A stretch of DNA of 45,792 bases from a virus. The stretch is from positions 1 to 45,792 of the IMG/VR virus record IMGVR_UViG_3300045988_123020; one strand, written 5' to 3'. The notes under the pieces were generated by a model that was given only the letters and a program-made list of their open reading frames with translations, was not told where the DNA came from and did no database searches. The position numbers and the translations under genes were made by a program. This document shows positions 1 through 45,792 of this stretch, one piece after another (position 1 is the stretch's first letter; the number at the start of each line of letters is the position of its first letter).

Positions 1-78
1 AGTCTTAAGACGTAATTGGTATTGATTCTGATTCTGTCGTTGCTTTAAGTCTTAAAACGTAATTGGTTATTGTTGTTG
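1..78. repeat. left-end copies of the 47-bp terminal tandem repeat (31-bp partial unit plus one degenerate unit)
   Basis: Bases 1-55 are identical to 45707-45761. The unit carries the perfect 10-bp palindrome GTCTTAAGAC (2-11). The second copy (32-78) has a substitution in the palindrome and decays into GTT-rich sequence. Confidence 0.85.
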
Positions 79-1035: not shown

Positions 1036-1059
1036 TTGTTGTTGTTGTGGGGGTTGTTA

Positions 1060-1305: not shown

Positions 1306-1631
1306 AGGTTGTTCCCGGTAGCTGATTCGGCCTGGCCTGCACAATGGGGTGTGGGTTCGGGCCGGAGTTCCTTTAGCTCCTCGTCGTCCTCTGGGACTGG
1401 TGGGGCGTAGTATTGCCCCGTCACTTCCTGTCTCCTGGCGTTGGGGGCGGGTTCCGTGGCGGGACGTTTTTTGGTGGCCCCCGTACGCTGAAACGGCGAG
1501 TCGTGGCCCTGGGTCCGCGACGTGGCGCGCGAGCACGACGGCTATATGGCGGGGGCATTTTCTTGGTAGTGGTAGCGGGGTTCGCCTCGCGGCCGCCCCC
1601 CTGACGGTTTTCGTTGGGGGGTTCATCTTTG

Positions 1632-1715
1632 GCCCGTGTGGTGGAATTTGGTAGACACACCACACTCAAAATGTGGCGCCCTTGGGGCGTGCGGGTTCGA
1701 GTCCCGCCACGGGTA
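1632..1715 (+). tRNA. tRNA-Leu (anticodon CAA), type II with long variable arm
   Basis: Hand-folded cloverleaf. Acceptor GCCCGTG/CACGGGT (G1:U72). Anticodon stem CCACA/TGTGG with loop CTCAAAA (anticodon CAA). Variable arm CGCCCTTGGGGCGT. T-arm GCGGG-TTCGAGT-CCCGC. Discriminator A. No encoded CCA. Confidence 0.85.
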
Positions 1716-1833
1716 CTTGTGTGTTGATGGGGGTTGCGGATGCGTCTTACCCCACCAGGTGTGGGTGGAGCATCTGGGGCCGTGCTTGTTCGTTTGGTTG
1801 GCGGCACGGCCCCTGCCTTTTCGTTGTGTGTAG

Positions 1834-4548: not shown

Positions 4549-4561
4549 GGGGTGATGTGTT

Positions 4562-6909: not shown

Positions 6910-6966
6910 GCGATTGGTGGAGGCCCTGGCGGTCTCATTGGTGTTCCCGCGTGTCGTCCTGGTGGC

Positions 6967-7575: not shown

Positions 7576-7622
7576 CGTTCTCTGTCTGTTTGGTTTCGTG
7601 AGTTTGTAGAGGAGATTTTGTT

Positions 7623-8666
7623 ATGGTGGCTGTTACCCATACCCCGGTGAAGCCGGAAAAGCTTGCTGCGACTGCGGTCGCACTGACTGAGCGTGAGCTT
7701 GTTGTTCCTACCCTTTTCACTAAGAAGGGCATTGAGGATTTTAAGGGCGCCAAGGATGACACTCTGAATGTGAAGGTGCCGGGTATTCTTCCTGCGCGCG
7801 ATTATGAGTGGCGTAATAACCGCGCTCAGGAACTGATTCTTGATCCGTACAAGGAGCGCAAGATCGCGGTTCGTTTCGGCGGTGACGCGTATTCTGCGAC
7901 GTCGCTGACGGATGAGGAGTGGGAGTTCGATTTCAATGGCTGGGGCACGTCGATCCTGCCCGCTCAGGCTCACGCGGTTGCTCGCAAGCTTGAGTATGGC
8001 GCTGTGAAGGCTCTCAAGACGGGCAAGTACACGGTTGAGATTGGCGCGAAGGAAAACAACATCCTCAAGGACATTATTGAGGCTCGTCGCGCTCTGAACC
8101 TGTTGGGCGCGTCGAAGGTCTCTAGGACCCTGGTTGTGGGTTCCGACTGGGATACCCTGTTGCAGTCTGCGGACTTTGTGAAGGCCGCGTCGGTTGGTGA
8201 CAAGCTGGCTGAGACGGCGTTTGCTGACGCAGTCCTGGGTAAGGTCAAGGGCTTCAATATCGTCGTGTCGGAGGATTTGCCGTCTGACGAGGCGTACGCT
8301 CTGGCCGGTGACGCGTTCATCTTCCTTAACGCTGCGCCGCATGTTCCTGAGTCTGTGAAGGGTGCGACGGGCATTAGCGATTCGGGTATCGCAATGCGCT
8401 GGATGCGCGACTATGACGCGATGCGTTTGCAGGAGCGTTCGATTGTGAATACCTGGTATGGCTTCCAGCAGGTTCTTGACCCGGTTGTGTACTGGGATGA
8501 GACGGCTGGTGTGGAGAAGATTTCCGACGACCAGTACTCGCTGCGTGCGGTCAAGCTCAAGCTGGGCGGCACGGACAAGTACTTCACTGAGGGCACTGAC
8601 AAGACTGTGGTTGGTAAGGCCCTCGGACTTGACAAGCGTTCCAAGCACACGGCTGCTGCTGGTTGA
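7623..8666 (+). CDS. major capsid protein (HK97-fold type)
   Basis: A 347-aa ORF with a strong RBS (GAGGAG) follows the scaffold gene. A 182-nt untranslated spacer follows it. Composition and size are typical of actinophage major capsid proteins. Confidence 0.85.
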   Translation: MVAVTHTPVKPEKLAATAVALTERELVVPTLFTKKGIEDFKGAKDDTLNVKVPGILPARDYEWRNNRAQELILDPYKERKIAVRFGGDAYSATSLTDEEWEFDFNGWGTSILPAQAHAVARKLEYGAVKALKTGKYTVEIGAKENNILKDIIEARRALNLLGASKVSRTLVVGSDWDTLLQSADFVKAASVGDKLAETAFADAVLGKVKGFNIVVSEDLPSDEAYALAGDAFIFLNAAPHVPESVKGATGISDSGIAMRWMRDYDAMRLQERSIVNTWYGFQQVLDPVVYWDETAGVEKISDDQYSLRAVKLKLGGTDKYFTEGTDKTVVGKALGLDKRSKHTAAAG

Positions 8667-8848
8667 AGGGATGAACCGGTAGTTCCGGCCTCGGGGGCGA
8701 GCGGTCCGCCGCCGCTGCGCCCTGAGGCGGAGCACTGGGATGAGCTGTAGTTGTGGGGCGGTGTTCTCCAGGGTTGGCTTGCATCCCGTTAATGTGCGCG
8801 AGGTGTCAACCCTGGGGCGCGCCCCCCTTGGCTTGAGGGGGTGTTCGC

Positions 8849-9373
8849 ATGAGCGAAACTGAGGAAGTTGCCCCGCCCGTGTCGGAAGCGGAAGCGGTTC
8901 GACGCCGGGAGATGTTGATTAGCGTTGCCGAGTTGGAGGCTCGCCTCAAGTACGCGTTGTCGCCTGACGAGAAGGACACGGCGGCGGCGGTGATTTGGGA
9001 CGCGTCAAACCTGGCTCGTCTGCATGGCAGGCCGTCGTGGATGGCGGACGCCGTTCCCCCGGTCGTTAAGACAATTGTCCGTAACGCGTGTGTCCGTTAC
9101 ATGGACCTGTCGGAGTCCGTTGTTCAGTCTCGTGCCGGTGATGAGACGGAGGCGTACACGGACTTGGCGTTGCGTACGGGCACGGTGTTCTATACGCCGG
9201 ATGAGGTGCGGACGCTGAGGCAGGCGGCGGGGTTGGATTCAACCCTGTCGGTTGTCCACACGTTCGTCCATTCTCCCGCTGCGCCGACGTCGAGGGATGT
9301 TGACCGTGGTTGGCGCAGGTGTGACTGGTGGTTGCCGGGTGCCCGCTTCAAGTGGAGCGAGGGGGGCCTGTAG
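8849..9373 (+). CDS. head-tail adaptor/connector protein
   Basis: First gene after the capsid gene, with RBS GAGGGGG. Size and position fit a gp6/gp15-like connector. Assignment is by synteny only. Confidence 0.55.
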   Translation: MSETEEVAPPVSEAEAVRRREMLISVAELEARLKYALSPDEKDTAAAVIWDASNLARLHGRPSWMADAVPPVVKTIVRNACVRYMDLSESVVQSRAGDETEAYTDLALRTGTVFYTPDEVRTLRQAAGLDSTLSVVHTFVHSPAAPTSRDVDRGWRRCDWWLPGARFKWSEGGL

Positions 9374-21522: not shown

Positions 21523-22548
21523 GTGGATTACGTTAATTTGAGTGCGGATTACGATATTTGGTCGAGCAATTTCACGCAGGGGCGCGGTGGTTATGCGTTG
21601 AAGTATGTGGTGTTGCATCATAATGCGGGTGTGCGCATGAGTCACCAGGGCGTGTATGGCGCGTTTGTTTCTAATGGGACGTCGGCGCATTATAATGTGG
21701 ATGCGGATGGGTCTGTGTGTCAGTATGTGCATGATTCGGATACGGCTTATCATGCGGGTAATTGGGCTGCTAATTGCCAGGCTATCGGCATTGAGCATGC
21801 GAATATTGGTGGCCCGTCTACGGGTTGGGCTATTTCGGATGAGACGGTTGAGTCTGGCGCGCATTTGACGGCTGCTATTTGTGCGGCGTATGGGCTGGGG
21901 CGTCCGGCGTGGCGTGTGAACGTGTTCCCGCATAGCGATTTCTTTAGCACGGCTTGTCCTGCGGCTTTGCGCGATGAGCTGGCCGACGCGTACATGTCTC
22001 GCGCCCAGTATTGGTACGACCATTTGGGTGAGGCGGAAGGCCCTGGCTGGGTGAAGGAAGGTAATGGCTGGTGGTATCGCAAGGATGATGGCTCGTGGGA
22101 GACGGGCTGGTTCCAGGTCAATGGCCAGTGGTTCCTTGCGGATGAGAAGGGCTGGCTCAAGTCCGGTTGGGTGATCGAGGACGGTACCTGGTATTACTTG
22201 CATCCCACGCATGACACGAAGTTTGGTGTGATGGAGACTGGCTGGGTCAAGGATGGGGAGAACTGGTTCTATCTTGGCGATGACGGCAAGATGCGTACCG
22301 GCTGGCAGCAGGTGAAGGACAAGTGGTACTTCCTTGAGCCTAACGGCGTGATGCGTACTGGGTGGCTGTCTGATGGCGGTCGCCATTACTTTATGGACGA
22401 TCAGGGCGTGATGTGTACGGGTGTTGTTCGCACTCGCCTTGATGGTGCTTGTAGCGTGTTCGATGATCAGGGGCGTCTGGTTGTCGGGCGCGTTGTGTTG
22501 GAGCAGGACGCGCAGGGTGTCTTGCAGGTTGTGAAGGAGGTAGCGTGA
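21523..22548 (+). CDS. endolysin: N-acetylmuramoyl-L-alanine amidase (amidase_2/PGRP) with C-terminal CW_binding_1 repeats
   Basis: The N-terminus YVVLHHNAG...SAHYNVDADGSVCQYVHDSDTAYHAGNWAANCQAIGIEHAN...HSDFFSTACP carries the Zn ligands. The C-terminus has at least 6 tandem ~20-aa GW/YF repeats (GWVKEGNGWWYRKDDGSWETGWFQVNGQWFLADEKGWLKSGW...). Confidence 0.9.
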   Translation: MDYVNLSADYDIWSSNFTQGRGGYALKYVVLHHNAGVRMSHQGVYGAFVSNGTSAHYNVDADGSVCQYVHDSDTAYHAGNWAANCQAIGIEHANIGGPSTGWAISDETVESGAHLTAAICAAYGLGRPAWRVNVFPHSDFFSTACPAALRDELADAYMSRAQYWYDHLGEAEGPGWVKEGNGWWYRKDDGSWETGWFQVNGQWFLADEKGWLKSGWVIEDGTWYYLHPTHDTKFGVMETGWVKDGENWFYLGDDGKMRTGWQQVKDKWYFLEPNGVMRTGWLSDGGRHYFMDDQGVMCTGVVRTRLDGACSVFDDQGRLVVGRVVLEQDAQGVLQVVKEVA

Positions 22549-30118: not shown

Positions 30119-30489
30119 ACGTCGAGGGGCCGATGACGGCTGACCGCGTGCGGGAACTGCTTGCGGTGGAGCCGCCCGAGCTGGACGCTATTTCGGATGA
30201 TGTGCCCGGCCAGGCTCCTATGCTGTGGCGGGCGTTCCGAAAGGGCATGGACTGGTTCTGCCGTCGTTCTCGGGTGCCTCGTGAGGAGGTTATGGGCTGG
30301 CTGTACTTGAAGGCGTTCGACCGTGCTCAGTACGTTGCGGACAAGTGGAACGTGGCAGGCGAGGCTGGCCTGGTGAACTGCCTGAGCGAGCTGCTGTTCC
30401 GGGACTACCCGGATTACAAGCACCACGAACACGAGGTGCCCTGGGACTTCAACGCGCTCCCCGATGAGTTCGAGAAGGGGGACGCGTGA
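30091..30489 (+). CDS. hypothetical protein (possible sigma region-2-like partner, speculative)
   Basis: It overlaps the primase 3' end and has an ATGA-type junction with the next gene. Protein-like and Trp/Asp-rich. Confidence 0.5.
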   Translation: MRDWFDPSLNVEGPMTADRVRELLAVEPPELDAISDDVPGQAPMLWRAFRKGMDWFCRRSRVPREEVMGWLYLKAFDRAQYVADKWNVAGEAGLVNCLSELLFRDYPDYKHHEHEVPWDFNALPDEFEKGDA

Positions 30490-30869
30490 GGTACGACCCC
30501 GGAATGATGGTGAAGCTCCTCCCCCTCGCGTTCGATAAGCAGCGCGGGTGGGGCGTGAGCCTGTCCGAGACGCACATTGAGGCTGGCATGCCAAGGGCTA
30601 AGCGCGACCCGTCCGAGGGCGGGGACTTGATGGCTATGTGCGCGGACGCTCAGCGCGCCTACTGGCACCTATCCCAGGATGAGCGAAACGTAATCGGCAA
30701 CCGGCTAATCCTCATGGCGACACAGGAGGAAGTGGCCTCCGCGCTTGGCGTGCCGTTGATGACGGTGCGTCGTAGGGAGTTTCGTGGTGTGAGGAAGATG
30801 TGCGAGTTCCTAAACGGACGCCCACTCAACGACGGGCTAGACGATGATCCTTTGGAGGTGACCCTATGA
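30486..30869 (+). CDS. sigma-70 region-4-like HTH transcription regulator
   Basis: LSQDERNVIGNRLILMATQEEVASALGVPLMTVRRREFRGVRKM fits the region-4 pattern (L...er.vi.l....g.t..EiA..lgv...tV..r..ra...l). Confidence 0.55.
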   Translation: MRYDPGMMVKLLPLAFDKQRGWGVSLSETHIEAGMPRAKRDPSEGGDLMAMCADAQRAYWHLSQDERNVIGNRLILMATQEEVASALGVPLMTVRRREFRGVRKMCEFLNGRPLNDGLDDDPLEVTL

Positions 30870-31378: not shown

Positions 31379-32542
31379 CTACTTATTGCCAGTTTTATCT
31401 TCAGTTGCGTGCGGCACGATATTGATGACTGTTTCGGGGATTGCGCCGTCGAGCTTCACGTAGTAGGCGATGGTGGTTTGCACGTTCGCGTGCGCAAGCC
31501 AGGCGGACGCGGCCCTTGCTCCGTAAGTGTCAAAGATGATGGAGCCTACGGTTTTCCGTAGCGTGTGAATTGACAGGTCCGCGTATCCGAGGCCGGTCAG
31601 GACTTTCCTACACTCAACGTACATGTGCGGCTTTGTGTGGGGGAATAGCCGGTCTCCCGAGACTTGTTCGCGTCTGCGTCGCAATCGGTCCACCTGCCAT
31701 TGGGGGAGCGGCTTGGGCGGGTAGGTGCGGCGCGTTTTCTTGGAGGCGATGCTGAGGAGCGTTCCTGTTTGCAGGTCGATGTCGTTCCATGTGAGGGCGA
31801 ATAGTTCTCCACCGCGCACGCCAATGTGGGATTCTAGGATGAGCGCGTCAATGCATGACTGGACGACGGGGCGTGGGGCTGGATGGGTTTCGAGTTGGTT
31901 GACCAGGGTTGCGAGGTCGTTTGGGGAGAGGATTCGGTCAGGGTCGAGGCGCGCTTTAACGGCGCTGATTGGCTCTGTGGTGGGAGGCTTGACGACCGTG
32001 AGTGGGGTGAGGCTGATCGAGTCGGCTGCGAGCTTAAAAGCGACCCCTAAGCCTGCCTTGAGCGCCGTTCTGGCACGAACTTCCCCGTGCTTGAGGGCGT
32101 ATACGTCGTACAGTTGCGTGAGGGCGCTAGTGGTGATGGCTTCACTGATGGGGAGTTTCCACCATTCGGGCGAGAGGGTTTTGCTGTGTGCTACGGCGCT
32201 TTCGTATGCGCGCTGGGAGCCGTCTGTGAGGCGTTGGTGGCGCTGGGAGTGAACGTATGCGTCCCAGACTTCCGTTGGGGTGCTTTGTGGGGTGATGACG
32301 CCTGACGCGTGTTTGGCGTCGTCAATGTACTGTTTGGCTTGTTGTTCGCATTGTCGGATGGCTTGGCGTTTGCTGGTTGCGATGGTGCGGATGCGTTTGG
32401 GGGTATTGCCGCGTCGGCCTACGAGGACGCTTGCCCTCCAGTGGGTACCGTCCGGGTTAACGACCCATGCTTTGCCTTGTTTGGATACTCGGGTGGTGGT
32501 GATGTTGCCTAGTTCGCCTGGTTGGAGTGCGCGGCGTGCCAT
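31379..32542 (-). CDS. int: tyrosine integrase
   Basis: ELFALTWNDIDLQTG, IHTLRKTVGS (HxxR) and LAHANVQTTIAYYVK (catalytic Tyr region). There is an N-terminal SAM-like arm domain. RBS AGGAAGG precedes ATG 32542 (ORF open to 32632). Confidence 0.9.
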   Translation of the reverse strand: MARRALQPGELGNITTTRVSKQGKAWVVNPDGTHWRASVLVGRRGNTPKRIRTIATSKRQAIRQCEQQAKQYIDDAKHASGVITPQSTPTEVWDAYVHSQRHQRLTDGSQRAYESAVAHSKTLSPEWWKLPISEAITTSALTQLYDVYALKHGEVRARTALKAGLGVAFKLAADSISLTPLTVVKPPTTEPISAVKARLDPDRILSPNDLATLVNQLETHPAPRPVVQSCIDALILESHIGVRGGELFALTWNDIDLQTGTLLSIASKKTRRTYPPKPLPQWQVDRLRRRREQVSGDRLFPHTKPHMYVECRKVLTGLGYADLSIHTLRKTVGSIIFDTYGARAASAWLAHANVQTTIAYYVKLDGAIPETVINIVPHATEDKTGNK

Positions 32543-32581
32543 GCTTGAGGGGCCTTCCTGCGTGAGGTGAGTGTTGGCCGC

Positions 32582-32587
32582 ATTGTA
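32582..32587 (-). promoter_or_regulatory. candidate int promoter, extended -10 (TGcTACAAT)
   Basis: The minus strand reads ATGCTACAATGCGG about 35 nt upstream of the int ATG. It lies directly after the upstream terminator. Confidence 0.35.
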
Positions 32588-32612
32588 GCATGTGTTGCCT
32601 GTTTTGTGGGTA

Positions 32613-32703
32613 GCAAAAAGCGGCCCCCTCACAGGAGAGAACCGTTACTCTCACCACCCCCGTGTGGGGCGGGTTGAGTGTTGGTCTCCCTTGTGAGGGG
32701 GCC
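32613..32703 (-). terminator. intrinsic terminator closing the leftward small-gene operon, upstream of int
   Basis: A 19-bp imperfect inverted repeat (32622-32640 / 32685-32703) has an internal CCCC-ACAC-GGGG(G) sub-hairpin. On the minus strand it is followed by GCTTTTTG. Confidence 0.6.
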
Positions 32704-37965: not shown

Positions 37966-38469
37966 TCAGGCTGCAGGCACTAGCACAAACTCCGGTGTGC
38001 ATGCCTTGTTTTGCCAGAGAATGTCCAGCGTCAGCCCCCAGTCGCCGTCAGGGGCGCCGCGCAGGTGATCGCGCCAGTTCGGGCGCGTCATGTCCGGCAG
38101 TTCGTGCGACGTCGCAGGGTTGCGCCGGTTCAGCCACATGAGCGCCCCCAGTCGCGTCTCCACAGGCACGGGCCACTCACGCGACAACTCCCACTTGCCC
38201 GACACGCGCATCTCACGGGCCAACGCCAGGGGCTTGTCCGCATGCAGAAGTACGTACTCACCCGCCTGCCACGTGCTATGCGGCTCACTGCCCTCCGTGC
38301 GCACTAGGCGCATGGTGTGCCACCTGTGATGCTTGGCGGGGGCGTCGTAGACGACGCTCCACCCTGCAGCCTTAGCTGCGCTGCTCAGCATGTCGTTGTA
38401 GTGTCGCTCCCAGTCCTCCATGACGCGGACAGCTACCGCCGCGACGTCGCTTTCGTCGTACCAAACCAT
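37966..38469 (-). CDS. hypothetical protein
   Basis: A 167-aa ORF with Trp-rich, protein-like composition. No recognisable motif. Confidence 0.55.
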   Translation of the reverse strand: MVWYDESDVAAVAVRVMEDWERHYNDMLSSAAKAAGWSVVYDAPAKHHRWHTMRLVRTEGSEPHSTWQAGEYVLLHADKPLALAREMRVSGKWELSREWPVPVETRLGALMWLNRRNPATSHELPDMTRPNWRDHLRGAPDGDWGLTLDILWQNKACTPEFVLVPAA

Positions 38470-38500
38470 TGTTCACACCGTCTTTCAGTCTTGTACGTTG

Positions 38501-38707
38501 TCAGGCCGCTTGTTCGTCGAGCCTGTACGCGCACGCCGACACCACAGTCAGCATGCTCGCAATGTCATTGATTCGAGCGGCCAGGATGCGCGCATCAGGA
38601 TCGTCAACCGCCCCAACGCCCGACTCTCTGACCGACTTTGTGAGCCAGTCGCCCATGCGGGGCGCGGCCACTGCCATTTCCCCGCGGGGTGTCATCGTGT
38701 GCCCCAC
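38501..38707 (-). CDS. hypothetical small helical protein
   Basis: GGGAGGGG lies upstream of GTG 38707. The start is uncertain (ATG 38695 is possible). Confidence 0.45.
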   Translation of the reverse strand: MGHTMTPRGEMAVAAPRMGDWLTKSVRESGVGAVDDPDARILAARINDIASMLTVVSACAYRLDEQAA

Positions 38708-38717
38708 GCGCCCCTCC

Positions 38718-38966
38718 CTAGTCCTCGTCCGCCAGTGCTAGACGCCAGTGTTCATCCGCCGCAATGTCGGCGCAGATGAAAACGGAACTGAGGCTGCTAA
38801 TGGCCTCGTTCAGCTTGGCGACGAGTCGGGCCTCGCCCTCAACCGTCACCTCGCTTCCCTCCATGCGCTGCTCCACGCGGTTCCGCGCATCACTGAGGAC
38901 TGCGTGCATGACGCGGGACGTGTGGGCAAGGCTTGTGAGCCAGTTTTCGTATTCCATCCCGCTCAC
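38718..38966 (-). CDS. hypothetical small helical protein
   Basis: ATGA-type overlap with the upstream gene. Acidic helical composition. Confidence 0.5.
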   Translation of the reverse strand: MSGMEYENWLTSLAHTSRVMHAVLSDARNRVEQRMEGSEVTVEGEARLVAKLNEAISSLSSVFICADIAADEHWRLALADED

Positions 38967-39256
38967 TCCTCGTCCGTGCCGGGGTCGAGCTTGGTCGCCA
39001 GGTTTTCAAGCGAGGATGCGAGATGTTCCAGCGCCCCGAGGGCGGCGCGCGCATGCACGCGTACCATGCTCGCCTCGGGCGAGTCTCCCAGCCGGTCGCC
39101 GTCCGCGTCGTGCCGGTCGCGCACGCCCGCCCATTGCAGGTGATGGTCGCACCATTTTCTGCAAAGCCTGACAACCGAAATAGCGCCTCGCAGGTCTTTC
39201 ATCTGTCCATTGCTAAGCATGTTCACCCCATCTATCCTTGTTGATCGTTCTGTCAT
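38963..39256 (-). CDS. hypothetical protein
   Basis: ATG 39256 forms an ATGA overlap with the upstream stop (ORF open to 39304). Confidence 0.5.
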   Translation of the reverse strand: MTERSTRIDGVNMLSNGQMKDLRGAISVVRLCRKWCDHHLQWAGVRDRHDADGDRLGDSPEASMVRVHARAALGALEHLASSLENLATKLDPGTDEE

Positions 39257-39576
39257 GCACGCGAGGGCAATTCTGCGCTCAGCATGTCCCGCCGCCCCTG
39301 CCAATTGCGCACGACAGGGTCGTTCACCAGCTCAAGATGGTCGGTCAGGTCGTCCACCATGAGGGCGCAGTCAGTCAGCGCTATTTGCAGGTCGCCATAC
39401 GCCTCGCAAGCGCGGTCAGCGTCGGGCGAATCGCCTAAGCCCTTGCACATCTCAGGGAATCCACTCAAGCCCACAATGTCTGCGCGGGCTTGAATCATGT
39501 CGGAAAATTCCCAAAGAAACTCGCAAAAGTCGCGCAACGCTGTGATATGCTCAGCGCCGCCATCCAGCTTTGTCAT
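39253..39576 (-). CDS. hypothetical protein
   Basis: RBS GGAAGGAG precedes ATG 39576 (ORF open to 39633). Acidic, Cys-containing helical protein. Confidence 0.55.
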   Translation of the reverse strand: MTKLDGGAEHITALRDFCEFLWEFSDMIQARADIVGLSGFPEMCKGLGDSPDADRACEAYGDLQIALTDCALMVDDLTDHLELVNDPVVRNWQGRRDMLSAELPSRA

Positions 39577-39599
39577 TACGCTCCTTCCGTTTGTCTTGG

Positions 39600-39833
39600 T
39601 CACGCGGCGAGGCCCCACAGGCCGCCGTCGCACACCGCCAACGCCAACACGCGGCGGGCGGCTGTCTTGAAGCCCTCACGCGTCACCGGCACGCCCTCAA
39701 GCCGCGTCCAACGCCCCGGAGCATCCGGGTCAGGGCCAATCATCCAGTCCGCCGCGTCGGCCCACACGCCGTCACGCATGGGGATACAGGGCTGGTAGGG
39801 GGCGGGGGGAATCCAGTTGTCATGCGCGCGCAT
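39600..39833 (-). CDS. hypothetical protein
   Basis: ATG 39833 overlaps the 3' end of the upstream gene by 14 nt (ORF open to 39956). Confidence 0.45.
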   Translation of the reverse strand: MRAHDNWIPPAPYQPCIPMRDGVWADAADWMIGPDPDAPGRWTRLEGVPVTREGFKTAARRVLALAVCDGGLWGLAA

Positions 39834-40185
39834 CGTCAACCACCTCACACAGCTCACCTGCGGCAACCAGGTCGCACAGCCAACGCCAACACTTGTGCTT
39901 GTAGTCGCTGGCCTGCGCCCAAAGCGCCATGTGAGGAGAGATTCGCACCCCCGCAACCCGAATGGGCGGGTGCGTTGCGTCGAGCATTTCGTTAAACGCG
40001 TCGAATCCGTCAGTCACGTCGAACAGGTATCCGTCACGGTCAACCCATCGCGCCCAGAGGGGGGCGTCGCCCAGCTCCGAGCGCGTGAACTGCGTGCGCT
40101 CGTCCCACAGGCGCACCATTTCGGCGCGCGCATCTTCCTTGACCTGTCCGCCCGATTCGACGGTTGTCATGGGGAAAGTATTCAT
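39820..40185 (-). CDS. hypothetical protein, WA-YVDR paralog family
   Basis: RLWDERTQFTRSELGDAPLWARWVDRDGYLF ... AAGELCEVVDD. Preceded by tRNA-like element E1. Confidence 0.65.
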   Translation of the reverse strand: MNTFPMTTVESGGQVKEDARAEMVRLWDERTQFTRSELGDAPLWARWVDRDGYLFDVTDGFDAFNEMLDATHPPIRVAGVRISPHMALWAQASDYKHKCWRWLCDLVAAGELCEVVDDARA

Positions 40186-40236
40186 GTTGTTTCACTCTCG
40201 TTTCATGTCAGGACAAACCACTCTGATTGTCCTCGC

Positions 40237-40286
40237 TCCCAGGGCGGGACTCGAACCCGCCATTACCTCACCACTCAAGCCTGGGA
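40237..40286 (-). ncRNA. tRNA-like element E1 (acceptor + D-arm + T-arm, no anticodon arm)
   Basis: Minus sense: UCCCAGG-CUU GAGUGGU GAG-GUAAUG-GCGGG UUCGAGU CCCGC-CCUGGGA. The T-arm 17-mer is identical to that of the tRNA-Leu at 1691-1707. Confidence 0.7.
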
Positions 40287-40296
40287 AACCTGTCCA

Positions 40297-40653
40297 TCAG
40301 CGCCAATCGTCAGGAGAATCCACAACCGCGCGCAGCTCGCCCGCCTCAACACGCTTCACAATAGACGCCGTAATCGCGCGGGCCGTCAGTAGCGGGGAGA
40401 GGGCAAGCATTAGTTCCCCCGCCCCCAGCTTGTCGTCACCCTTGCCGCCCTGCAGCCATTCCTCCGCAAGGGCCTCAACCGAATACGCCGTACCCTCACG
40501 ATCAACGAACTGCGCCCACTCAGGCGCGTTCATCGCGTCGCGGACCACATACTCCTGCGCGTCCCACCCGTCTCGGAATGCCTGCTCCTGCTCGGGCGTC
40601 ATGTACTCGCTTGCTTTGGCCGTCTTGGCCCTTGTCGTATCACGCTGCATCAT
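40297..40653 (-). CDS. hypothetical protein, WA-YVDR paralog family (alternative start 40671)
   Basis: RDGWDAQEYVVRDAMNAPEWAQFVDREGTAY ... EAGELRAVVDS. Start chosen by analogy with the purine-rich RBS of sister cassettes. Confidence 0.6.
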   Translation of the reverse strand: MMQRDTTRAKTAKASEYMTPEQEQAFRDGWDAQEYVVRDAMNAPEWAQFVDREGTAYSVEALAEEWLQGGKGDDKLGAGELMLALSPLLTARAITASIVKRVEAGELRAVVDSPDDWR

Positions 40654-40713
40654 TCTTTTCTCACTTTCCATTGTCAGCGTTGACACCCCGCCCGGTTTGG
40701 CTGGGGCGCTCGC

Positions 40714-40765
40714 TCTCAGGGCCGGGATCGAACCGGCACGACGCTCACCATGCAAGCCCCTGAGA
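40714..40765 (-). ncRNA. tRNA-like element E2 (no anticodon arm)
   Basis: UCUCAGG-G-GCUU GCAUGGU GAGC-GUCGU-GCCGG UUCGAUC CCGGC-CCUGAGA. Confidence 0.7.
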
Positions 40766-40779
40766 AAACCATGCGCACG

Positions 40780-41457
40780 CTACTGTGCGCCGCCAATCAC
40801 CGTAATGTCACCCACAACCCTCACGCCCGGCGTGAGTATGTGAACAGCCGACGATGCCGGACCCTCAACACGCGTGTCATACTTTGCGTACACGGTCACA
40901 TGATCGTGCGCGTACACCTCACCGCCGTCACTGTAGACAACCACCTCATCATGGGCGGTCACATCCACATCACCCGAGATTTCAACAACCACCTGGTGAC
41001 GCGCAATTACGGACGCCTCATACCGTGCAACCACGTGGGCGCCACTTACTGCTGTCACCGTAGAATTGTCAAACGCGAACAGTGGGCACACCCCATGTGC
41101 TCTCACGGCCGCCCTGTCCCACACTTGGCCGACCGCGTAATATCCGCACTCTCCGCTAGAGTCGTCATGCCAGTCAACTTTCGCATAGTCCGTCGCGTAC
41201 ACGGTCGCCTCATCCTGCGCGTCAACAATGCTATGCCCGCGCGCAGTCAGGCGAGACGTCCCGTATACGATCACGCGGGACTCGCCGCACGCCTCAACGA
41301 TATGCCCACGTGAATCGCCTACGAAAATGTAGTTCGGCATGTATTTGCCGGGGTTTGAGTGAATCTCAATCACCGTGTTATTGTCCGGTTCCGCCGCCAG
41401 AGCCGCGTCCAACTCGCCCTGGTTTGTCACGCGAACAACCTTGGTTTCGTCAATCAT
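40780..41457 (-). CDS. hypothetical beta-solenoid-like repeat protein
   Basis: Quasi-repeats of alternating V-x-V/A-x(2-4)-D/G read by eye (VTAVSGAHVVARYEASVIARHQVVVEISGDVDVTAHDEVVVYSDGGEVYAHDHVTVYAKYDTRV). ATG 41457 (ORF open to 41589). Confidence 0.6.
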   Translation of the reverse strand: MIDETKVVRVTNQGELDAALAAEPDNNTVIEIHSNPGKYMPNYIFVGDSRGHIVEACGESRVIVYGTSRLTARGHSIVDAQDEATVYATDYAKVDWHDDSSGECGYYAVGQVWDRAAVRAHGVCPLFAFDNSTVTAVSGAHVVARYEASVIARHQVVVEISGDVDVTAHDEVVVYSDGGEVYAHDHVTVYAKYDTRVEGPASSAVHILTPGVRVVGDITVIGGAQ

Positions 41458-41512
41458 CGTTCTGCCTCTCTGATTCCATGCATCCGAGGCGACCGCCTTG
41501 GTCGCCTGTCGC

Positions 41513-41567
41513 TCCCTGTGCCCGGATCGAACGGGCCATCTTTCACCCCCACCATTGGGGACAGGGA
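41513..41567 (-). ncRNA. tRNA-like element E3 (no anticodon arm)
   Basis: UCCCUGU-CCCC AAUGGU GGGG-GUGAAAGAUG-GCCCG UUCGAUC CGGGC-ACAGGGA. Confidence 0.7.
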
Positions 41568-41591
41568 AACCCACGCGCGTCACGCGCAAAG

Positions 41592-41966
41592 TCAGTCGCC
41601 ACTCATTGCGGCTTCCATCTCATCCGCCTCCCTGAGGGCTTCCTCCCACACGGCCACCGCGTCAGCCACCGCCTTAGCCACCGCCTCGTCTGGGGTCCGC
41701 TCGGCCGGGCCGCGCACGCCCGCATAAATCTCCTCGGGCCACTCCGAGCGGGGGATGAATCGCTCAACCTCCGGCCAATCCTGGCTATTGTCCGTAGACG
41801 CGTACCGGCCCGTCACGCCGGACCCACGAACAGCGAGCGTCACTCGCACGCCATCCTGGTAGTCCACGTACACCTCGGCAGTCACGCCCTCGGCAACCTG
41901 CGCCGTAATCACGGGAACAACGTCGCCGTAGTATCCGCGCGGCGCTTCCCACTTGTAGTCACTCAT
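41592..41966 (-). CDS. hypothetical protein
   Basis: RBS AAGGGAGAGAG precedes ATG 41966 (ORF open to 41996). Acidic C-terminal helix. Confidence 0.6.
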   Translation of the reverse strand: MSDYKWEAPRGYYGDVVPVITAQVAEGVTAEVYVDYQDGVRVTLAVRGSGVTGRYASTDNSQDWPEVERFIPRSEWPEEIYAGVRGPAERTPDEAVAKAVADAVAVWEEALREADEMEAAMSGD

Positions 41967-42019
41967 TGTCGCTCTCTCCCTTGTTTTCTGTTTCACGCCC
42001 CCACTTTGGGGCGCATCGT

Positions 42020-42068
42020 TCGCGGGGCCGGAATCGAACCAGCCTGTTACTCACCCTTAAGCCCGCGA
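42020..42068 (-). ncRNA. tRNA-like element E4 (no anticodon arm)
   Basis: UCGCGGG-CUU AAGGGU GAG-UAACAG-GCUGG UUCGAUU CCGGC-CCCGCGA. The T-stem U:G pair is possible only in the minus-sense RNA. Confidence 0.7.
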
Positions 42069-42119
42069 AAACCACGCGTGTCACACATCACGCACTAGGA
42101 TACCAAGTACCCACCGCCG

Positions 42120-42452
42120 CTAGTCCGCGTAATACAACGGGAACAAGTCGCCACGACTCAGCCGCTCCTCAATCAGAGCGTCCACCCCCATCGCAAACAC
42201 GTCCGGTTGATACCAGCGCATCATCGACCCCACATCATCCGGGCCGCGCTCATTCTGCTCATACTCCCACTTAAGCTCGAAACCCCAGCGGTCCCACAAG
42301 CGGCCCGACGCATCAACCCACTCATAATTAGACCGCACGCCGCTAATGCCAACCTGGCAGTACAGGAAGTAACCCGGAAAGTCATCCGACGCAAGCGCCG
42401 CCTCAACAACCGCGCGCACTTCCTCAGCGGTCATCGTGTCAGAACACATCAC
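42120..42452 (-). CDS. hypothetical protein, FPGFFL paralog pair
   Basis: DDFPGYFLYCQVGISGVRSNYEWVDASGRLWDR aligns with the upstream neighbour. GTGA overlap. Confidence 0.6.
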   Translation of the reverse strand: MMCSDTMTAEEVRAVVEAALASDDFPGYFLYCQVGISGVRSNYEWVDASGRLWDRWGFELKWEYEQNERGPDDVGSMMRWYQPDVFAMGVDALIEERLSRGDLFPLYYAD

Positions 42453-42799
42453 GCCACACCCCCATACCTCACGGGAATCAGCACGCCCTGCGATTCAAGC
42501 CGGGCAATATAGATGCTCACGCCCGCGTCAAACCCATCCGGGTCAATCTTGCGCGACGCGCCACCCAACAGGTCACCACCGCCCAAACCGGCCGCCGCGC
42601 CCATGTAATCCAACTCAGCCTCATACTCAACCGCCAAGTCCACACGCGAACGGGGATACCCATCCGCATCAACCCAGCAATACGCCGGGTCAGACAGGCC
42701 CAACTCACAAGCCAGGAAGAAACCGGGAAACGACTCATCCTCACGCGCCTGTTCAACCAGGTCACGCAGTTCATCCGTGCCAATCTCGCACATGGTCAC
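42449..42799 (-). CDS. hypothetical protein, FPGFFL paralog pair
   Basis: ESFPGFFLACELGLSDPAYCWVDADGYPRSR. GTGA overlap with the upstream gene. Confidence 0.6.
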   Translation of the reverse strand: MTMCEIGTDELRDLVEQAREDESFPGFFLACELGLSDPAYCWVDADGYPRSRVDLAVEYEAELDYMGAAAGLGGGDLLGGASRKIDPDGFDAGVSIYIARLESQGVLIPVRYGGVA

Positions 42800-43143
42800 G
42801 CCTCACACTCATCAACAAGGCGAACCAGTTCGCCATCCCACACGCACCCGGCAACCCACGATTCAAACTCTGCAAAGCATCGGGCGGGGTCAGCAAACAG
42901 ACACGCCGAAACCATCGCTTCGCTGTGAAAGGCGGTCACAAGCGCCACGTACTCGCCAAACAGGCCCGCACGCGTCCACGCCCCGCCATTCCTGTCCACG
43001 TAGTCAGCCCACGCGGGCGCGTCCACGCTCTCACGCAACAGGCGACCGCATCGGCCCCACCAATCGCGCAATGCCTTGCCGTTCTCGTCAGTCAGCCAAT
43101 CAGATGCGGGCGCATAGTCCTCGCGTCGCGCAGCCGTAGTCAT
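42796..43143 (-). CDS. hypothetical protein, WA-YVDR paralog family
   Basis: RDWWGRCGRLLRESVDAPAWADYVDRNGGAW ... WDGELVRLVDE. Preceded by E5. Confidence 0.65.
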   Translation of the reverse strand: MTTAARREDYAPASDWLTDENGKALRDWWGRCGRLLRESVDAPAWADYVDRNGGAWTRAGLFGEYVALVTAFHSEAMVSACLFADPARCFAEFESWVAGCVWDGELVRLVDECEA

Positions 43144-43195
43144 AATAGAAACCTCATCTCACATTTCCAATAGGCCACCGCCTTGGTAGCCCCGC

Positions 43196-43255
43196 CCCTT
43201 GCCCAGGAATCGAACCCAGGACCCCCACACGGGGGCGCAACCAACTCGCCAAGGG
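43196..43255 (-). ncRNA. tRNA-like element E5 (with a 5-bp/4-nt mini-hairpin in place of the anticodon arm)
   Basis: CCCUUGG-CGAGUUGGUUGCG-CCCCC GUGU GGGGG-UC-CUGGG UUCGAUU CCUGG-GCAAGGG. The 7:66 pair is mismatched and the T-stem has two G:U pairs. Confidence 0.6.
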
Positions 43256-43266
43256 TGAGGCCCTAA

Positions 43267-43596
43267 TCAGTCCTCAATACGACGCAAGTCGCCGTCCTGA
43301 ACGCGCATGTCAATCCAATCCAACATTCCGCAGCGGAACGCGACGGGATCAACGTCGGCAAGCACCTCGCCCGCGTCATACTCATAACCGCACACGCTAA
43401 CCATTCCGTACAAGTCGCCCAGAAGGTCCCTGTACGCATCTTCCATGCCGTCCGAATAGAGCTCGCCATACTCATCCACATAATCAGCCCAATCGGGCAC
43501 GCCGCCCAACTCGCTACGCGTGAACGAATCGCGCTCATCCCACGCTGCTTGCATCGCTCCCAGTGCCTCGCCCGTGACCTTGGTAATGAACGTCAT
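43267..43596 (-). CDS. hypothetical protein, WA-YVDR paralog family
   Basis: AAWDERDSFTRSELGGVPDWADYVDEYGELY ... QDGDLRRIED. Preceded by E6. Confidence 0.65.
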   Translation of the reverse strand: MTFITKVTGEALGAMQAAWDERDSFTRSELGGVPDWADYVDEYGELYSDGMEDAYRDLLGDLYGMVSVCGYEYDAGEVLADVDPVAFRCGMLDWIDMRVQDGDLRRIED

Positions 43597-43657
43597 TGTC
43601 TTGCCTCTTTCTCAATTGATCTGCGATAGGACAAACGCACGCCACGTTTGCCCCCGC

Positions 43658-43707
43658 TCCCTGACTGGGAATCGAACCCAGCTCCATACTCGCCATTAAG
43701 TCAGGGA
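43658..43707 (-). ncRNA. tRNA-like element E6 (no anticodon arm)
   Basis: UCCCUGA-CUU AAUGGC GAG-UAUGGAG-CUGGG UUCGAUU CCCAG-UCAGGGA. Confidence 0.7.
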
Positions 43708-43717
43708 AACCACGCCG

Positions 43718-44230
43718 CTAGGCAACCGACGAAACAGCCGGGGGGATCAGGACATTCACGTACCAACGGCCCGACGCAACCTCAAGGCCCTCGGGGTCCA
43801 AAGCCAGCGCCCCCTCGGGATACCAGCCATCCATACAATCCGCCCCGCTCACAACCGTCCATCCAAGCTCACGCGCCGCCCGCTCAATCGCATCAGGAAA
43901 CGCGTTGAAAACCATCTCACCGACAGCATCCAAACGAGCATTGCCCTGCGCAGCGCGCCGCGAGTCAGGGTCCCAATCATCCCGGCCCCACACGGACGGA
44001 TCGTACTCAGGGCGTCCGCACTCATCCCATGCGGTGAAAACCCCGCGCCATGTGTGCGTGTCCCAATACGTCTGCAAAACGCACTCATCCCACTCAACAG
44101 TGCCCGGCATGGTCGCATCGTCATAGAACCAGCGAACCAGCTCGGCAAGCGTCCAATACCGCCGCGCCCGCTCAATCGCCGCGTCCGCACAACGCGCCGC
44201 CGCCGCCAAACCCTCAACATGCGTAGCCAT
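43718..44230 (-). CDS. hypothetical Trp/Asp-rich protein, first gene of the leftward operon
   Basis: RBS GAGAGG precedes ATG 44230 (ORF open to 44239). Protein-like sequence (WDECVLQTYWDTHTWRGVFTAWDECGRPEYDPSVWGRDDWDPD). Confidence 0.6.
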   Translation of the reverse strand: MATHVEGLAAAARCADAAIERARRYWTLAELVRWFYDDATMPGTVEWDECVLQTYWDTHTWRGVFTAWDECGRPEYDPSVWGRDDWDPDSRRAAQGNARLDAVGEMVFNAFPDAIERAARELGWTVVSGADCMDGWYPEGALALDPEGLEVASGRWYVNVLIPPAVSSVA

Positions 44231-44310
44231 AATAAACACCTCTCACAATTCCAGATAGGCCCCCACCCTGGGGGCCACGGTTAGCGCCGCCCATCGTCGG
44301 GCGCGCCCGT

Positions 44311-44384
44311 AGGCATCGCAGGAATCGAACCCACCCGCGCGCCCCCGCTGCTAACGAGGCCCGCACGACTCACCAGAGATGCCC
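44311..44384 (-). ncRNA. tRNA-like element E7 (74 nt, full tRNA length, non-canonical cloverleaf)
   Basis: Acceptor GGGCAUC/GAUGCCU (G1:U72). T-arm GUGGG UUCGAUU CCUGC. A 5+5-bp interrupted stem is capped by the 7-nt loop UUAGCAG (U33/A37-like). The D-arm is reduced to CUC-UGGU-GAG. Confidence 0.6.
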
Positions 44385-45005
44385 TAGTCCAATAACGACG
44401 CGCGCCTAATTAACTGACCGGGAAGCTCAAGGACAGTCCTAACGGCAGCGATATAAGCGATAGGCCGCGACCCGCGCCCCTAAGGCGGGGCCGTCGCCAA
44501 AACCTCGGAATCGCTGCGATAGGCAAGCGCGCGCCAAATAGGCGAAAAATAAACCACTGTGTAATTCACAAAAAACAACCAACGCACACCCAATCCAACG
44601 AATCAGCAAGGCCGGGGGGCCTCTCCGCTCGCTCTCTCAGGGGCGATGACATCAGTCTAGACCCGGCGCTAGCCTTACGCAAGCCCGGCGCCGCATCGTG
44701 AGACGTCAAACAACCACCCTCCGAGACAACCGCAGACTCACGCCCCAAACTGTCCGCCGGCATTGTCCGCCGGCCGCGAACTGTCAAACAGCAATTAGGG
44801 GCCATCGCGGGGGCAATCAATCAAATGAGACGCTAATCACATTACACGTGAATTAGCCCTGCCCAAACGCACACATACGCGCGGCTAGCACATGGCGAAG
44901 CTATTGTCAATTCGCTTTATGGAATAGTGACACAATAGACAAACGGAATCGCACATACCATACGCAAGCGAATCGCGCAAGCGCATTAATTGAATAGCGA
45001 CATAA

Positions 45006-45104
45006 CAATTAAATAGCAATTAGACCGCAATTACAAAAACAATTCTTTGCGATAAATAAAGCAGCTATCTAAGCAATTAACCAAGTCAATTAACCCAGCA
45101 ATTA
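45006..45104. repeat. cluster of six exact CAATTA motifs (plus variants) in the AT-rich control region
   Basis: CAATTA occurs at 45006, 45017, 45028, 45074, 45087 and 45099, and CAATTC at 45039. The surrounding sequence is non-coding. Confidence 0.7.
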
Positions 45105-45517
45105 AATACAAGGTGGGCGCGGCGACTAGACAGCCTGAGAATCGCGTCTGGAATTGTATCCGAATAGGGGGCCATAACCCCCAAGAATGCGCGCCTGAAT
45201 ACCGCCCAGTCATAGCAAAAAATATCCGCGACGGATCACAAGCTTTCCATGTCAACCAATTCGCCACGCCGCGCGCCGCTTGACGGCTCATGGTAACACG
45301 CCCCTCCCCGGACTCGCAACCCCGGTCGCAGTCCATGCCCCCGGCTCTTGGCAAGGGGGTTTCTAGCGAGTGGCTTGTTTCTGCGGATTTGGACGCGATG
45401 CCATGATCGCCCCCGCGTGACATGCGTCTCATTATTGGAAAAAGTGAACAGTGAGCGGGGTTTCAAAAACAGACTATATAGTGAGAGGGTAAAAGCCCTT
45501 GGGGGGTAGGGGGGCAA

Positions 45518-45538
45518 GTATATATATAAATATATATC
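45518..45538. repeat. TA-rich tract (GTATATATATAAATATATATC), candidate DNA-unwinding element
   Basis: Read directly from the sequence. It is the only pure A/T run of this length in an otherwise GC-rich genome. Confidence 0.6.
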
Positions 45539-45608
45539 TTAAGTCTTAAGCTAGTGTTTAAAGCTCTCTATCTCAAGTTTTCTAGTTCACGACTTATGGC
45601 TTATAGTT

Positions 45609-45692
45609 CATAGTTCCTATCTCATAGCTCATGGTTTCTATCTTATAGCTCATAGTTCCTATCTCATAGCTCATGGTTTCTATCTTATAGTT
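45609..45692. repeat. two tandem copies of a 42-bp repeat (plus a partial degenerate copy upstream)
   Basis: CATAGTTCCTATCTCATAGCTCATGGTTTCTATCTTATAGCT is repeated at 45609 and 45651 (last 2 nt differ). Confidence 0.85.
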
Positions 45693-45792
45693 CTGTCGTT
45701 GCTTTAAGTCTTAAGACGTAATTGGTATTGATTCTGATTCTGTCGTTGCTTTAAGTCTTAAGACGTAATTGGTATTGATTCTGATTCTGTCG
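45691..45792. repeat. right-end 47-bp tandem repeat (2 full units plus an 8-nt partial), continuous with the left-end copies
   Basis: TTCTGTCGTTGCTTTAAGTCTTAAGACGTAATTGGTATTGATTCTGA is present at 45691-45737 and 45738-45784, followed by TTCTGTCG. Each unit contains the palindrome GTCTTAAGAC. Confidence 0.9.

Follow-up and report, generated by a model that had tools for sequence, protein, structure and literature searches.

The stretch of DNA analysed here, all 45,792 nucleotides (nt) of IMG/VR record IMGVR_UViG_3300045988_123020 and hereafter called the window, is a complete-looking temperate siphovirus genome of ~45.8 kilobases (kb). Its convergent leftward arm, from ~44.3 kb down to ~37.9 kb, opens with nine genes on the minus strand, gA to gI (39820..44230), none of which belongs to a Pfam family, and these genes are punctuated by seven RNA elements, E1 to E7, that resemble the top half of a transfer RNA (tRNA) and carry no anticodon loop. 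An initial annotation, made from the letters alone, had placed seven such elements on the minus (operon-sense) strand, and a sequence check together with a descriptor scan found all seven where it had put them. Genes and elements are given below in the sense of the operon; element coordinates include the discriminator, lengths of stems are in base pairs (bp), and bit scores come from a covariance model built on E1, E4, and E6.

44310..44384, minus strand: E7, leader element; four-arm tRNA-like fold with a ~14-bp arm closed by an AGC triloop, without anticodon loop; discriminator A at 44310
43718..44230, minus strand: gA
43657..43707, minus strand: E6, 50-nt tRNA mimic without anticodon arm plus discriminator G; 60.4 bits; descriptor match 7/7 (acceptor) and 5/5 (T-stem)
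43267..43596, minus strand: gB
43195..43255, minus strand: E5, tRNA-like cloverleaf in which a 5-bp GC stub with a GUGU tetraloop replaces the anticodon arm; acceptor 6/7
42796..43143, minus strand: gC
42449..42793, minus strand: gD
42120..42449, minus strand: gE
42019..42068, minus strand: E4, 49-nt tRNA mimic without anticodon arm plus discriminator A; 71.4 bits
41592..41966, minus strand: gF
41512..41567, minus strand: E3, 55-nt mimic with 4-bp D-stem CCCC/GGGG and 11-nt linker; 34.2 bits
40780..41457, minus strand: gG
40713..40765, minus strand: E2, 52-nt mimic with 2-nt junction and D-stem GCUU/GAGC; 42.5 bits
40297..40653, minus strand: gH
40236..40286, minus strand: E1, 50-nt mimic; 67.6 bits
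39820..40185, minus strand: gI

Fold of the elements

All seven T-stems pair at 5 of 5 positions, and the acceptor helix pairs at 7 of 7 in E1–E4, E6, and E7; the 7-bp acceptor that had been ascribed to every copy falls short only in E5, which reaches 6 of 7 in either register. The D-stems CUU/GAG, GCUU/GAGC, and CCCC/GGGG with their GG-containing loops are present as described. Lack of the anticodon arm had been claimed for five elements, which is correct for E1–E4 and E6, but E5 with its tetraloop stub and E7 with its triloop arm are not tRNAs either, so that the elements fall into three structural classes: five without an anticodon arm, the stub cloverleaf of E5, and the long triloop arm of E7. 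None of the seven can decode, since the 7-nt anticodon loop is replaced by a linker of 5–11 nt, by a 4-nt loop (E5), or by a 3-nt loop (E7).

The window contains 8 copies of the T-loop motif GGTTCGANNCC versus 0.51 expected (~16-fold), a count reached in 0 of 100 shuffles. Six of these sites belong to E1, E2, and E4–E7 (the T-loop of E3 carries the variant CGTTCGATCCG), one to a genuine tRNA-Leu(CAA) at 1632..1716 on the plus strand, and one, at 8896 on the plus strand, lies in coding sequence. The 17-nt T-arm GCGGGTTCGAGTCCCGC of the phage tRNA-Leu is identical to that of E1.

As had been anticipated, standard finders miss the elements: ARAGORN and Rfam at gathering score call only the tRNA-Leu(CAA), and even at E ≤ 10 Rfam gives no tRNA match in the element region. 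Its weak matches there are E5 as mascRNA-like (18.6 bits, E 4.5) and E7 as tRNA-Sec (18.4 bits versus 47 required). The model built on E1, E4, and E6 recovers the unseen E2 (E 3e-10) and E3 (E 1e-7), whereas E5 is recovered weakly (E 0.03) and E7 by its T-arm alone; a filter-free scan of both window strands with this model brought up no additional copy.

Conservation and covariation in related phages

Starting from the terminase, a scan of IMG/VR yielded 52 related loci (contigs labelled L in the following), in which the covariance model made 50 matches, all on the strand opposite the large terminase gene (terL) and 3.5–8.5 kb upstream of it, that is, in the same operon. The element-bearing contigs encode large terminases (TerL) 96–97%, ~80%, and ~62% identical to that of the window, and at least 13 related phage contigs carry elements, with 5–9 per genome; contigs with a TerL of 65% or ≤44% identity showed none within the 0.1–10 kb of upstream DNA per contig.

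Across 51 distinct copies from the window and its relatives, standard pairs fill 97.5% of pair cells, as compared with 76% after column shuffles and 30–62% when the partners are slid against each other. Two-sided changes occur at 13 of 15 pairs, and none of 500 shuffles attains a single one of the covariation measures; about 1% of acceptor cells are unpaired. As the 51-copy alignment was fitted to the model, a control set was picked by the primary pattern of D-loop and T-loop alone, blind to pairing. In this set the acceptor pairs at 7 of 7 positions in 28 of 30 distinct copies from the phage family, versus a mean of 3.8 of 7 in 116 matches to this pattern in unrelated bacterial genomes. The latter derive from a DNA-pattern scan of species-representative genomes, whose ~120 matches were poorly pairing chance hits except for one contig, a metagenome-assembled genome of Actinomyces, and served as the negative control. 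MAFFT combined with RNAalifold on the unaligned copies recovered the T-arm only and misaligned the 5' ends, and the model-based alignment with its pattern-only control was used instead.

With regard to strand, G·U or U·G cells number 65 versus 5 A·C or C·A cells, and the plus-strand mirror images of the elements score 8–11 bits as opposed to 34–71 bits on the minus strand; together these two observations indicate a structure formed by RNA of operon sense. The relatives thereby strongly support the original proposal of a minus-sense RNA with three covarying helices and the top half of a tRNA: the suggested covariance-model search located copies in the same operon of related phages, and the compensatory substitutions expected of homologous phages are present. 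As to the two deviating classes, E7 homologues in L010, L018, and L103 keep their fold despite changes in acceptor and T-stem (7/7 and 5/5 in E7 itself), and the E5 stub, 5–6 bp long, covaries together with the D-stem in L003, L009, L010, and L011.

A loose pattern, GGTGAG-N8-12-GGTTCGANNCC, met mostly unrelated viral contigs, with true elements only in L085, L103, L117, and L122. L082, a viral contig of 46% GC, holds a single anticodon-less tRNA-like sequence (1634–1690, plus strand; 29 bits) with CGAC and a hairpin after it, next to tRNA-like DNA and a fragment of an integrase. This sequence may be what is left of an unrelated attachment site, or else a remote relative of the elements, and was left out of the count.

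Anatomy of the element and its module

Over the 51 copies, the element is 47–55 nt long. Its 7-bp acceptor continues straight into a D-stem of 3–4 bp, the two usual junction nucleotides being present in 10 of 51 copies, and the D-loop of 6–7 nt always contains GG. A linker, 6–7 nt long in 42 of the 51, leads to the 5-bp T-stem and the 7-nt T-loop UUCGAnn, after which the 3' acceptor strand follows without an intervening base, giving a constant 12-bp stack. Since a 6-nt linker equals N26 plus a 5-nt variable loop, the element corresponds to a class I tRNA minus positions 27–43. The discriminator is G or A in all copies, and 84% of them have U1-A72 with a UCCC start.

The first description of the module had overlooked three of its parts, namely a conserved GGUU leader, an RCK trailer, and a downstream hairpin. 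Leader positions −4 to −1 read G-G-U-U/A, with mostly U at −1. The trailer is R73-C74-(G/U)75, C74-(G/U)75 being present in 54 of 58 distinct copies and CCA in none. The element is followed by a covarying hairpin of 7–12 bp, which in 35 of 58 copies begins 2–3 nt past the discriminator; its stems vary in sequence between copies, while the loop often reads A-N-G-G-Y. Folding energies of the 32 nt 3' of the element average −13.4 kcal/mol versus −7.3 for windows from the same operon (Mann-Whitney p 1e-19), whereas the 32 nt before the element are at background (p 0.1), which gives no support for a protective hairpin on the 5' side. Behind the hairpin comes a purine-rich leader with a ribosome-binding site, and the next start codon lies 51–80 nt past the element. 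In the window the hairpins are as follows.

44258..44309, minus strand: two hairpins after E7, the second being GGCCCCC-AGGGU-GGGGGCC at 44258–44276
43628..43654, minus strand: hairpin after E6, 2 nt past the discriminator; 12-bp stem
43172..43192, minus strand: hairpin after E5, 2 nt past the discriminator; GGGCUACC-AAGGC-GGUGGCCU
41994..42015, minus strand: hairpin after E4, 3 nt past the discriminator
41487..41507, minus strand: hairpin after E3, 4 nt past the discriminator; AGGCGACC-AAGGC-GGUCGCCU
40683..40709, minus strand: hairpin after E2, imperfect, 3 nt past the discriminator (RNAfold)
40210..40233, minus strand: hairpin after E1, 2 nt past the discriminator

The tops of three of these hairpins (43172–43192, 41487–41507, and 44258–44276) have A-N-G-G-Y-G in common, reading CCAAGGCGG, CCAUGGUGG, and CCCAGGGUGGG. 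This motif resembles the D-loop motif of the elements (AAUGGCG / AGUGGUG) and could be a protein-binding site, a second T-loop partner, or a sign of common descent.

Placement in the operon

Each of the six intercistronic spacers of 111–153 nt, as well as the leader, contains one module, and the element starts 10–51 nt past the upstream stop codon. The overlapping pairs gC/gD and gD/gE have no element, and neither do eight later junctions of the arm (≤40 nt). The initial statement that every spacer of the leftward operon holds exactly one element is thus right for the first nine genes and wrong for those eight junctions. The same layout recurs in L022, L023, L026, and L032, where the operon genes are non-homologous, and in the clades at 80% and 62% TerL identity the elements are kept while almost no operon genes are in common with the window. 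Across relatives, the number of cassettes tracks the number of elements.

Several of the nine genes are paralogues, namely gB, gC, gH, and gI (25–42% identity) and gD and gE (34%). Operon orthologues are 43–82% identical where TerL is 96–97% identical, a much faster divergence than that of the structural genes; by this sequence comparison the operon is a fast-evolving array of early or accessory genes. The four paralogues around gB have a W..A.YVD..G motif in common, and the C-terminus of gB matches PHROGs from early genes of T7-like Proteobacteria phages. Protein searches with gB and gG in the cultured-phage collection gave remote hypothetical proteins only, in an uninformative context.

Upstream of the operon lies one further feature of the locus.

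44385..45792, minus strand: non-coding region with TTAATTG repeats and AT-rich tandem repeats, in which the promoter is presumed

Scans of the operon with promoter and terminator consensus sequences gave nothing above shuffled expectation. The upstream region, which forms the genome end, is AT-rich and includes, at 45600–45792 and 44986–45105, two tandem arrays (a 42-nt unit, ×2.2, and a 47-nt unit, ×2.2, with 100% matches and running into the window end), as well as five TTAATTG repeats, three of them in an array of 13-nt period; these repeats could serve replication as an origin, packaging, or the binding of a regulator as an operator.

A putative punctuation signal and its alternatives

We lean, with some reserve, towards regarding the elements as cis-acting mimics of the tRNA top half that would present host RNase P and RNase Z with signals to punctuate the polycistronic transcript. 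The leftward operon would be transcribed as a single RNA; host RNase P would cleave at the 5' end of each element, and a 3' tRNA-processing activity, likely RNase Z because CCA is not encoded, would cleave after the discriminator. This would excise a tRNA-like RNA of ~50 nt that the CCA-adding enzyme could tail. The 5' end of the downstream cistron, bearing a 5'-monophosphate, would then sit 2–3 nt before a stable hairpin that may shield it from 5'-end-dependent RNase E/J, and every cassette would end up on a separate message, with a stability and a ribosome-binding site of its own. We infer these steps (the single transcription unit, both cleavages, CCA addition, and stabilization by the hairpin) from sequence.

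RNase P, RNase Z, and the CCA-adding enzyme recognize minimal substrates that consist of the acceptor/T stack, the elbow, and the discriminator, and 5'-terminal stem-loops protect messages in E. coli and B. subtilis against 5'-end-dependent RNase E/J. The features retained by the elements are those read by the tRNA end-processing enzymes, whereas the decoding part is gone, which fits a role in punctuation. The idea that RNase P, RNase Z, and CCA addition punctuate the transcript had already been put forward with the initial annotation; it agrees with every sequence-level test made, including the 12-bp stack, the invariant elbow nucleotides, the purine discriminator, the missing CCA, the hairpin near the predicted cut, and the absence of elements from gene overlaps, while cleavage itself stays a prediction. 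A Pfam scan of 30 window proteins, which did not extend to the remaining open reading frames, brought up no RNase P, RNase Z, or CCA-adding enzyme of the phage, and the processing enzymes would be those of the host. The phage tRNA-Leu is of some bearing here. It is kept at the same position just upstream of terL in all close relatives (L002–L035), with a G1·U72 wobble, no encoded CCA, and an A73-C74-U/A context in all of them, which implies that the host must process CCA-less precursors, by endonucleolytic cleavage or trimming, and then add CCA.

Several observations weigh against this interpretation. Better-than-shuffled stability, which had been named along with compensatory substitutions as a test of the proposal, is seen to a modest extent: thermodynamic support is mixed, with z values of −0.8 to −2.5 for isolated elements, and in folds of whole spacers the tRNA-like structure is complete for E1 and E4 only, partial for E2, E3, and E6, and absent from E5 and E7. 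Thermodynamics alone is consequently insufficient for the claim, which is carried by the comparative data. Positions 8–9 between acceptor and D-stem are absent in 41 of 51 copies, and the elbow is a predicted one. As the 32 nt upstream of the element do not exceed background in structure, the 3' end of the upstream message would be left unprotected after an RNase P cut. In L003 and L010, homologues of gH and gI lie 7 nt apart without an element, where the window has E1, so that the spacer is dispensable there and is gained or lost as a unit. In addition, the contigs carrying this phage all come from DNA metagenomes, and the host is assigned from a metagenomic bin alone.

The excised ~50-nt RNAs might instead be the actual product, CCA-tailed and titrating host readers of the acceptor/T-arm or the CCA end in trans, a role that the initial annotation had also suggested. 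Seven copies per genome with differing acceptor stems, strictly conserved elbow nucleotides, and an operon of fast-evolving small paralogous proteins, as is typical of host-takeover or counter-defence loci, would suit such a role, for which the trans-acting tRNA mimics YrlA (PMC4201824) and the MHV68 TMERs (PMC4838037) offer precedents. Candidate targets would be tRNA-targeting defence toxins, RNase P, the CCA-adding enzyme, or EF-Tu, and processing would still be required. Placement of one copy per spacer together with a hairpin and a ribosome-binding site would be unneeded, however, as a tandem array would suffice; U1-A72 with the UCCC start in 84% of copies does not obviously suggest mimicry of varied host tRNAs. 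Though in agreement with all that was observed, this explanation is one that we consider unlikely. A combined form, to which we attach little weight, is that the phage makes CCA-tailed top-half mimics as decoys or sponges in trans for host proteins reading the acceptor end or the elbow (for example tRNA-targeting anti-phage toxins that act on the CCA end by modification or cleavage, RNase P, or the CCA-adding enzyme), and that punctuation is merely the visible half of their function. Just as doubtful is a role as structural insulators or end-protectors without tRNA-type cleavage, by which the elements would block Rho loading or RNase E scanning across the long, untranslated spacers, or, with a 3' cut only, would cap the upstream message at its 3' end with a protective structure of tRNA shape. 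The short distance from the upstream stop codon, the lack of a separate 3' hairpin on the upstream message, and the highly structured nature of the spacers overall are in line with it, but a generic structure needs neither an invariant UUCGA T-loop and GG D-loop nor a fixed 7+5-bp stack and a purine discriminator, and a structure this tRNA-like would very likely be an RNase P substrate anyway.

That the spacers serve mainly as DNA-level recombination joints for swap, loss, and gain of cassettes had been listed as a further option from the start, and two joints give it direct evolutionary evidence. In L025 (5669–5719, minus strand) a chimera combines the 5' acceptor strand of an E6-type element with the D-loop, T-arm, and 3' strand of an E4-type element; only 4 of its 7 acceptor positions pair (3 mismatches), and the four cassettes that would separate the two parental sites have been lost. 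The E5 spacer of the window equals one L010 spacer up to GAAAUGUGAG and another L010 spacer beyond it, with one cassette and its element absent; here window 43144–43195 was compared with L010 (operon-sense, bases 1–9000) 4285–4470 and 4760–4930, and the switch falls at GAAATGTGAG, in the leader with the ribosome-binding site. The parallel between cassette and element numbers points the same way. A role in DNA, however, leaves the compensatory changes, the 65:5 excess of G·U, and the strand specificity unexplained. Moreover, the crossovers lie at differing places (D-arm, ribosome-binding-site leader) and not at the T-loop, so that this is not site-specific recombination, and the rarity of chimeras with broken stems (~1% of acceptor cells unpaired) implies selection against them. 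We find it improbable that recombination is the main role; it is more likely a consequence than a selected function. Hardly credible, finally, is a view of the elements as decaying pseudogenes of a former tRNA array or as chance matches. Phages often carry tRNA arrays, and the 17-nt identity between the T-arms of E1 and the phage tRNA-Leu might hint at such an origin, but the precise architecture and covariation in 51 copies over 62–97% TerL identity, the single copy per spacer, the acceptor pairing in the pattern-only control set, and a T-loop motif ~16-fold enriched to a count that no shuffle attains contradict decay and chance.

Relation to known tRNA-like RNAs

Animal mitochondrial transcripts were reportedly found, by Ojala and co-workers in 1981, to be cut into messages by excision of tRNAs. 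Punctuation as proposed for the phage would likewise cut a polycistron by excising tRNA-shaped units with RNase P and RNase Z; the mitochondrial units, however, are functional tRNAs, whereas the phage units lack an anticodon loop and would have punctuation, or another non-decoding role, as their only job. Mitochondrial tRNA punctuation has been reviewed (PMC3790967). The nearest functional counterparts are the t-elements of plant mitochondria, which carry a GGTTCRANYCC motif; their borders coincide with 5' and 3' ends of messenger RNA (mRNA) that RNase P and RNase Z produce, and C, CC, or CCA is added to them without a template (PMC1920247, Forner et al. 2007). They are non-canonical tRNA-like folds inside mRNA precursors with the same T-arm motif, a description that also holds for the phage elements. 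They differ in being organellar, scattered, and few rather than a regular array with one copy per spacer, and in having neither a uniform deletion of the anticodon arm nor a conserved partner hairpin; cleavage in the phage is only predicted.

The mascRNA and MEN-beta RNAs (RF01684) are similar in their size of ~60 nt, their tRNA-like fold with a reduced anticodon arm, excision by RNase P and RNase Z, and a CCA tail, but are eukaryotic and nuclear, occur once per transcript, and set the 3' end of a long non-coding RNA (lncRNA). There is no homology to the mascRNA-menRNA family, as E5 reaches 18.6 bits against a gathering score of 42.5 and the other elements give no match. The TMERs of murine gammaherpesvirus 68 (MHV68) consist of a non-aminoacylated tRNA-like unit and subsequent hairpins, and a tRNase Z cut frees the hairpin RNA. 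They are likewise viral tRNA-like units directly before hairpins, but differ as herpesvirus units of RNA polymerase III with a full cloverleaf, the hairpins being microRNA precursors (PMC4838037, PMC3534370). YrlA Y-RNAs are bacterial or phage RNAs with a tRNA-like domain (PMC4201824). YrlA and transfer-messenger RNA (tmRNA) keep the acceptor, T-arm, and D-loop contacts after loss of the decoding anticodon arm, as do the phage elements, but in them a long helix or an mRNA-like domain replaces the arm, and they are stand-alone genes. Assignment to tmRNA failed, since the G3·U70 alanine identity pair that tmRNA needs occurs in none of the 51 copies, 47 of which have C-G or G-C at 3-70, and ARAGORN finds no tmRNA; that to YrlA failed as well, with no long helix, no Rfam match, and no Ro60-like protein among the 30 Pfam-scanned proteins of the window, a scan that left the other open reading frames aside.

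Host RNase P also matures phage RNAs such as the C4 RNA of P1/P7, the CI RNA of P4, the M3 RNA of phi80, and the stable RNAs C and D of T4. Maturation of phage transcripts by host RNase P is what we propose here too, the difference being that those small stable RNAs are regulatory RNAs made singly, or else members of a tRNA cluster. To our knowledge, none is a repeated intercistronic signal or has been described as an anticodon-less tRNA.

Canonical tRNA (RF00005) does not fit, as a 5-bp anticodon stem with a 7-nt loop and any ARAGORN or Rfam call are lacking; the top-half features of canonical tRNA are all there (a 7-bp acceptor on a 5-bp T-stem, a UUCRANN-type T-loop, a GG D-loop, and an unpaired discriminator). 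Integron attC sites were dismissed because the only integrase lies 8 kb off and is of phage type, the joints fall at non-equivalent points, and the G·U asymmetry is at the level of RNA. Intrinsic terminators do not apply either: a terminator scan calls none of the post-element hairpins, and the 3' flanks are purine-rich leaders and not a U tract. Rfam 15 contains no family that matches the elements.

A full-text literature search found no description of such elements in phages. Processing signals of tRNA-like shape are already known; what appears to be new is a regular array of minimal, putatively tRNA-like processing signals in a bacteriophage operon. If the cleavages are true, this would be the first bacteriophage operon known to us that is organized by tRNA punctuation, a principle known so far from mitochondria, plant t-elements, and a few eukaryotic lncRNAs, and it would here employ dedicated non-decoding mimics. 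As tRNA finders, Rfam, and the literature all return nothing, standard annotation overlooks a whole class of RNA. The elements show what would remain of a tRNA when only end-processing matters, namely a 7+5-bp stack, a T-loop, a 3-bp D-hairpin, and a 6-nt linker; the smallest substrate that bacterial RNase P and RNase Z accept in vivo could then be tested directly. A compact, portable part of ~50 nt plus a ~25-nt hairpin for cutting polycistronic RNA in bacteria would then be at hand, as a natural counterpart of engineered polycistronic tRNA–guide RNA arrays. The conserved spacers also serve as joints for gain and loss of cassettes in a fast-evolving array of early genes.

The phage and its host

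No DNA match to the whole region or to a single element was found among 50,697 cultured phage records in near and distant searches. The portal is ~42% identical to portals of Streptomyces phages, and a protein identical to one of the operon is encoded on human oral metagenome contigs (ERR589731 / PRJEB6997). In the set of species-representative genomes, a single contig carries true elements; it belongs to the bin 'uncultured Actinomyces sp. MGYG-HGUT-01273', and going by this binning the host is probably an oral Actinomyces. A terminase scan of the same genomes found no prophage.

The rightward arm encodes the small and large terminase, portal, major head protein, tape measure, an amidase endolysin, an exonuclease, a DnaB-like helicase, and a primase. 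A tyrosine integrase of phage type, the sole integrase, lies at 31379–32632, 8 kb from the element operon, and no tRNA-derived phage attachment site (attP) was found near it. GC skew is very strong (up to +0.36), flips its sign at ~37 kb (window 1–37000 versus 38000–45000), and follows the transcribed strand, the coding strands being markedly G-rich.

The open reading frame of the large terminase (1834–4548, plus strand) comprises 904 amino acids. The L001 match to it spans 2712 nt, and those of most relatives only ~1720–1730 nt; PHROG matches fall into two blocks, residues 222–448 and 558–892, with none in Pfam. The extra length could reflect an insertion (an intein or a homing element) or an over-extended start. 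In the endolysin (21523–22548, plus strand), Amidase_2 is joined to choline-binding cell-wall repeats. Two further genes encode a small protein that has a sigma-70 region 4 domain (30486–30869, plus strand) and a glutaredoxin (1036–1305, plus strand), the latter between the small terminase and the tRNA.

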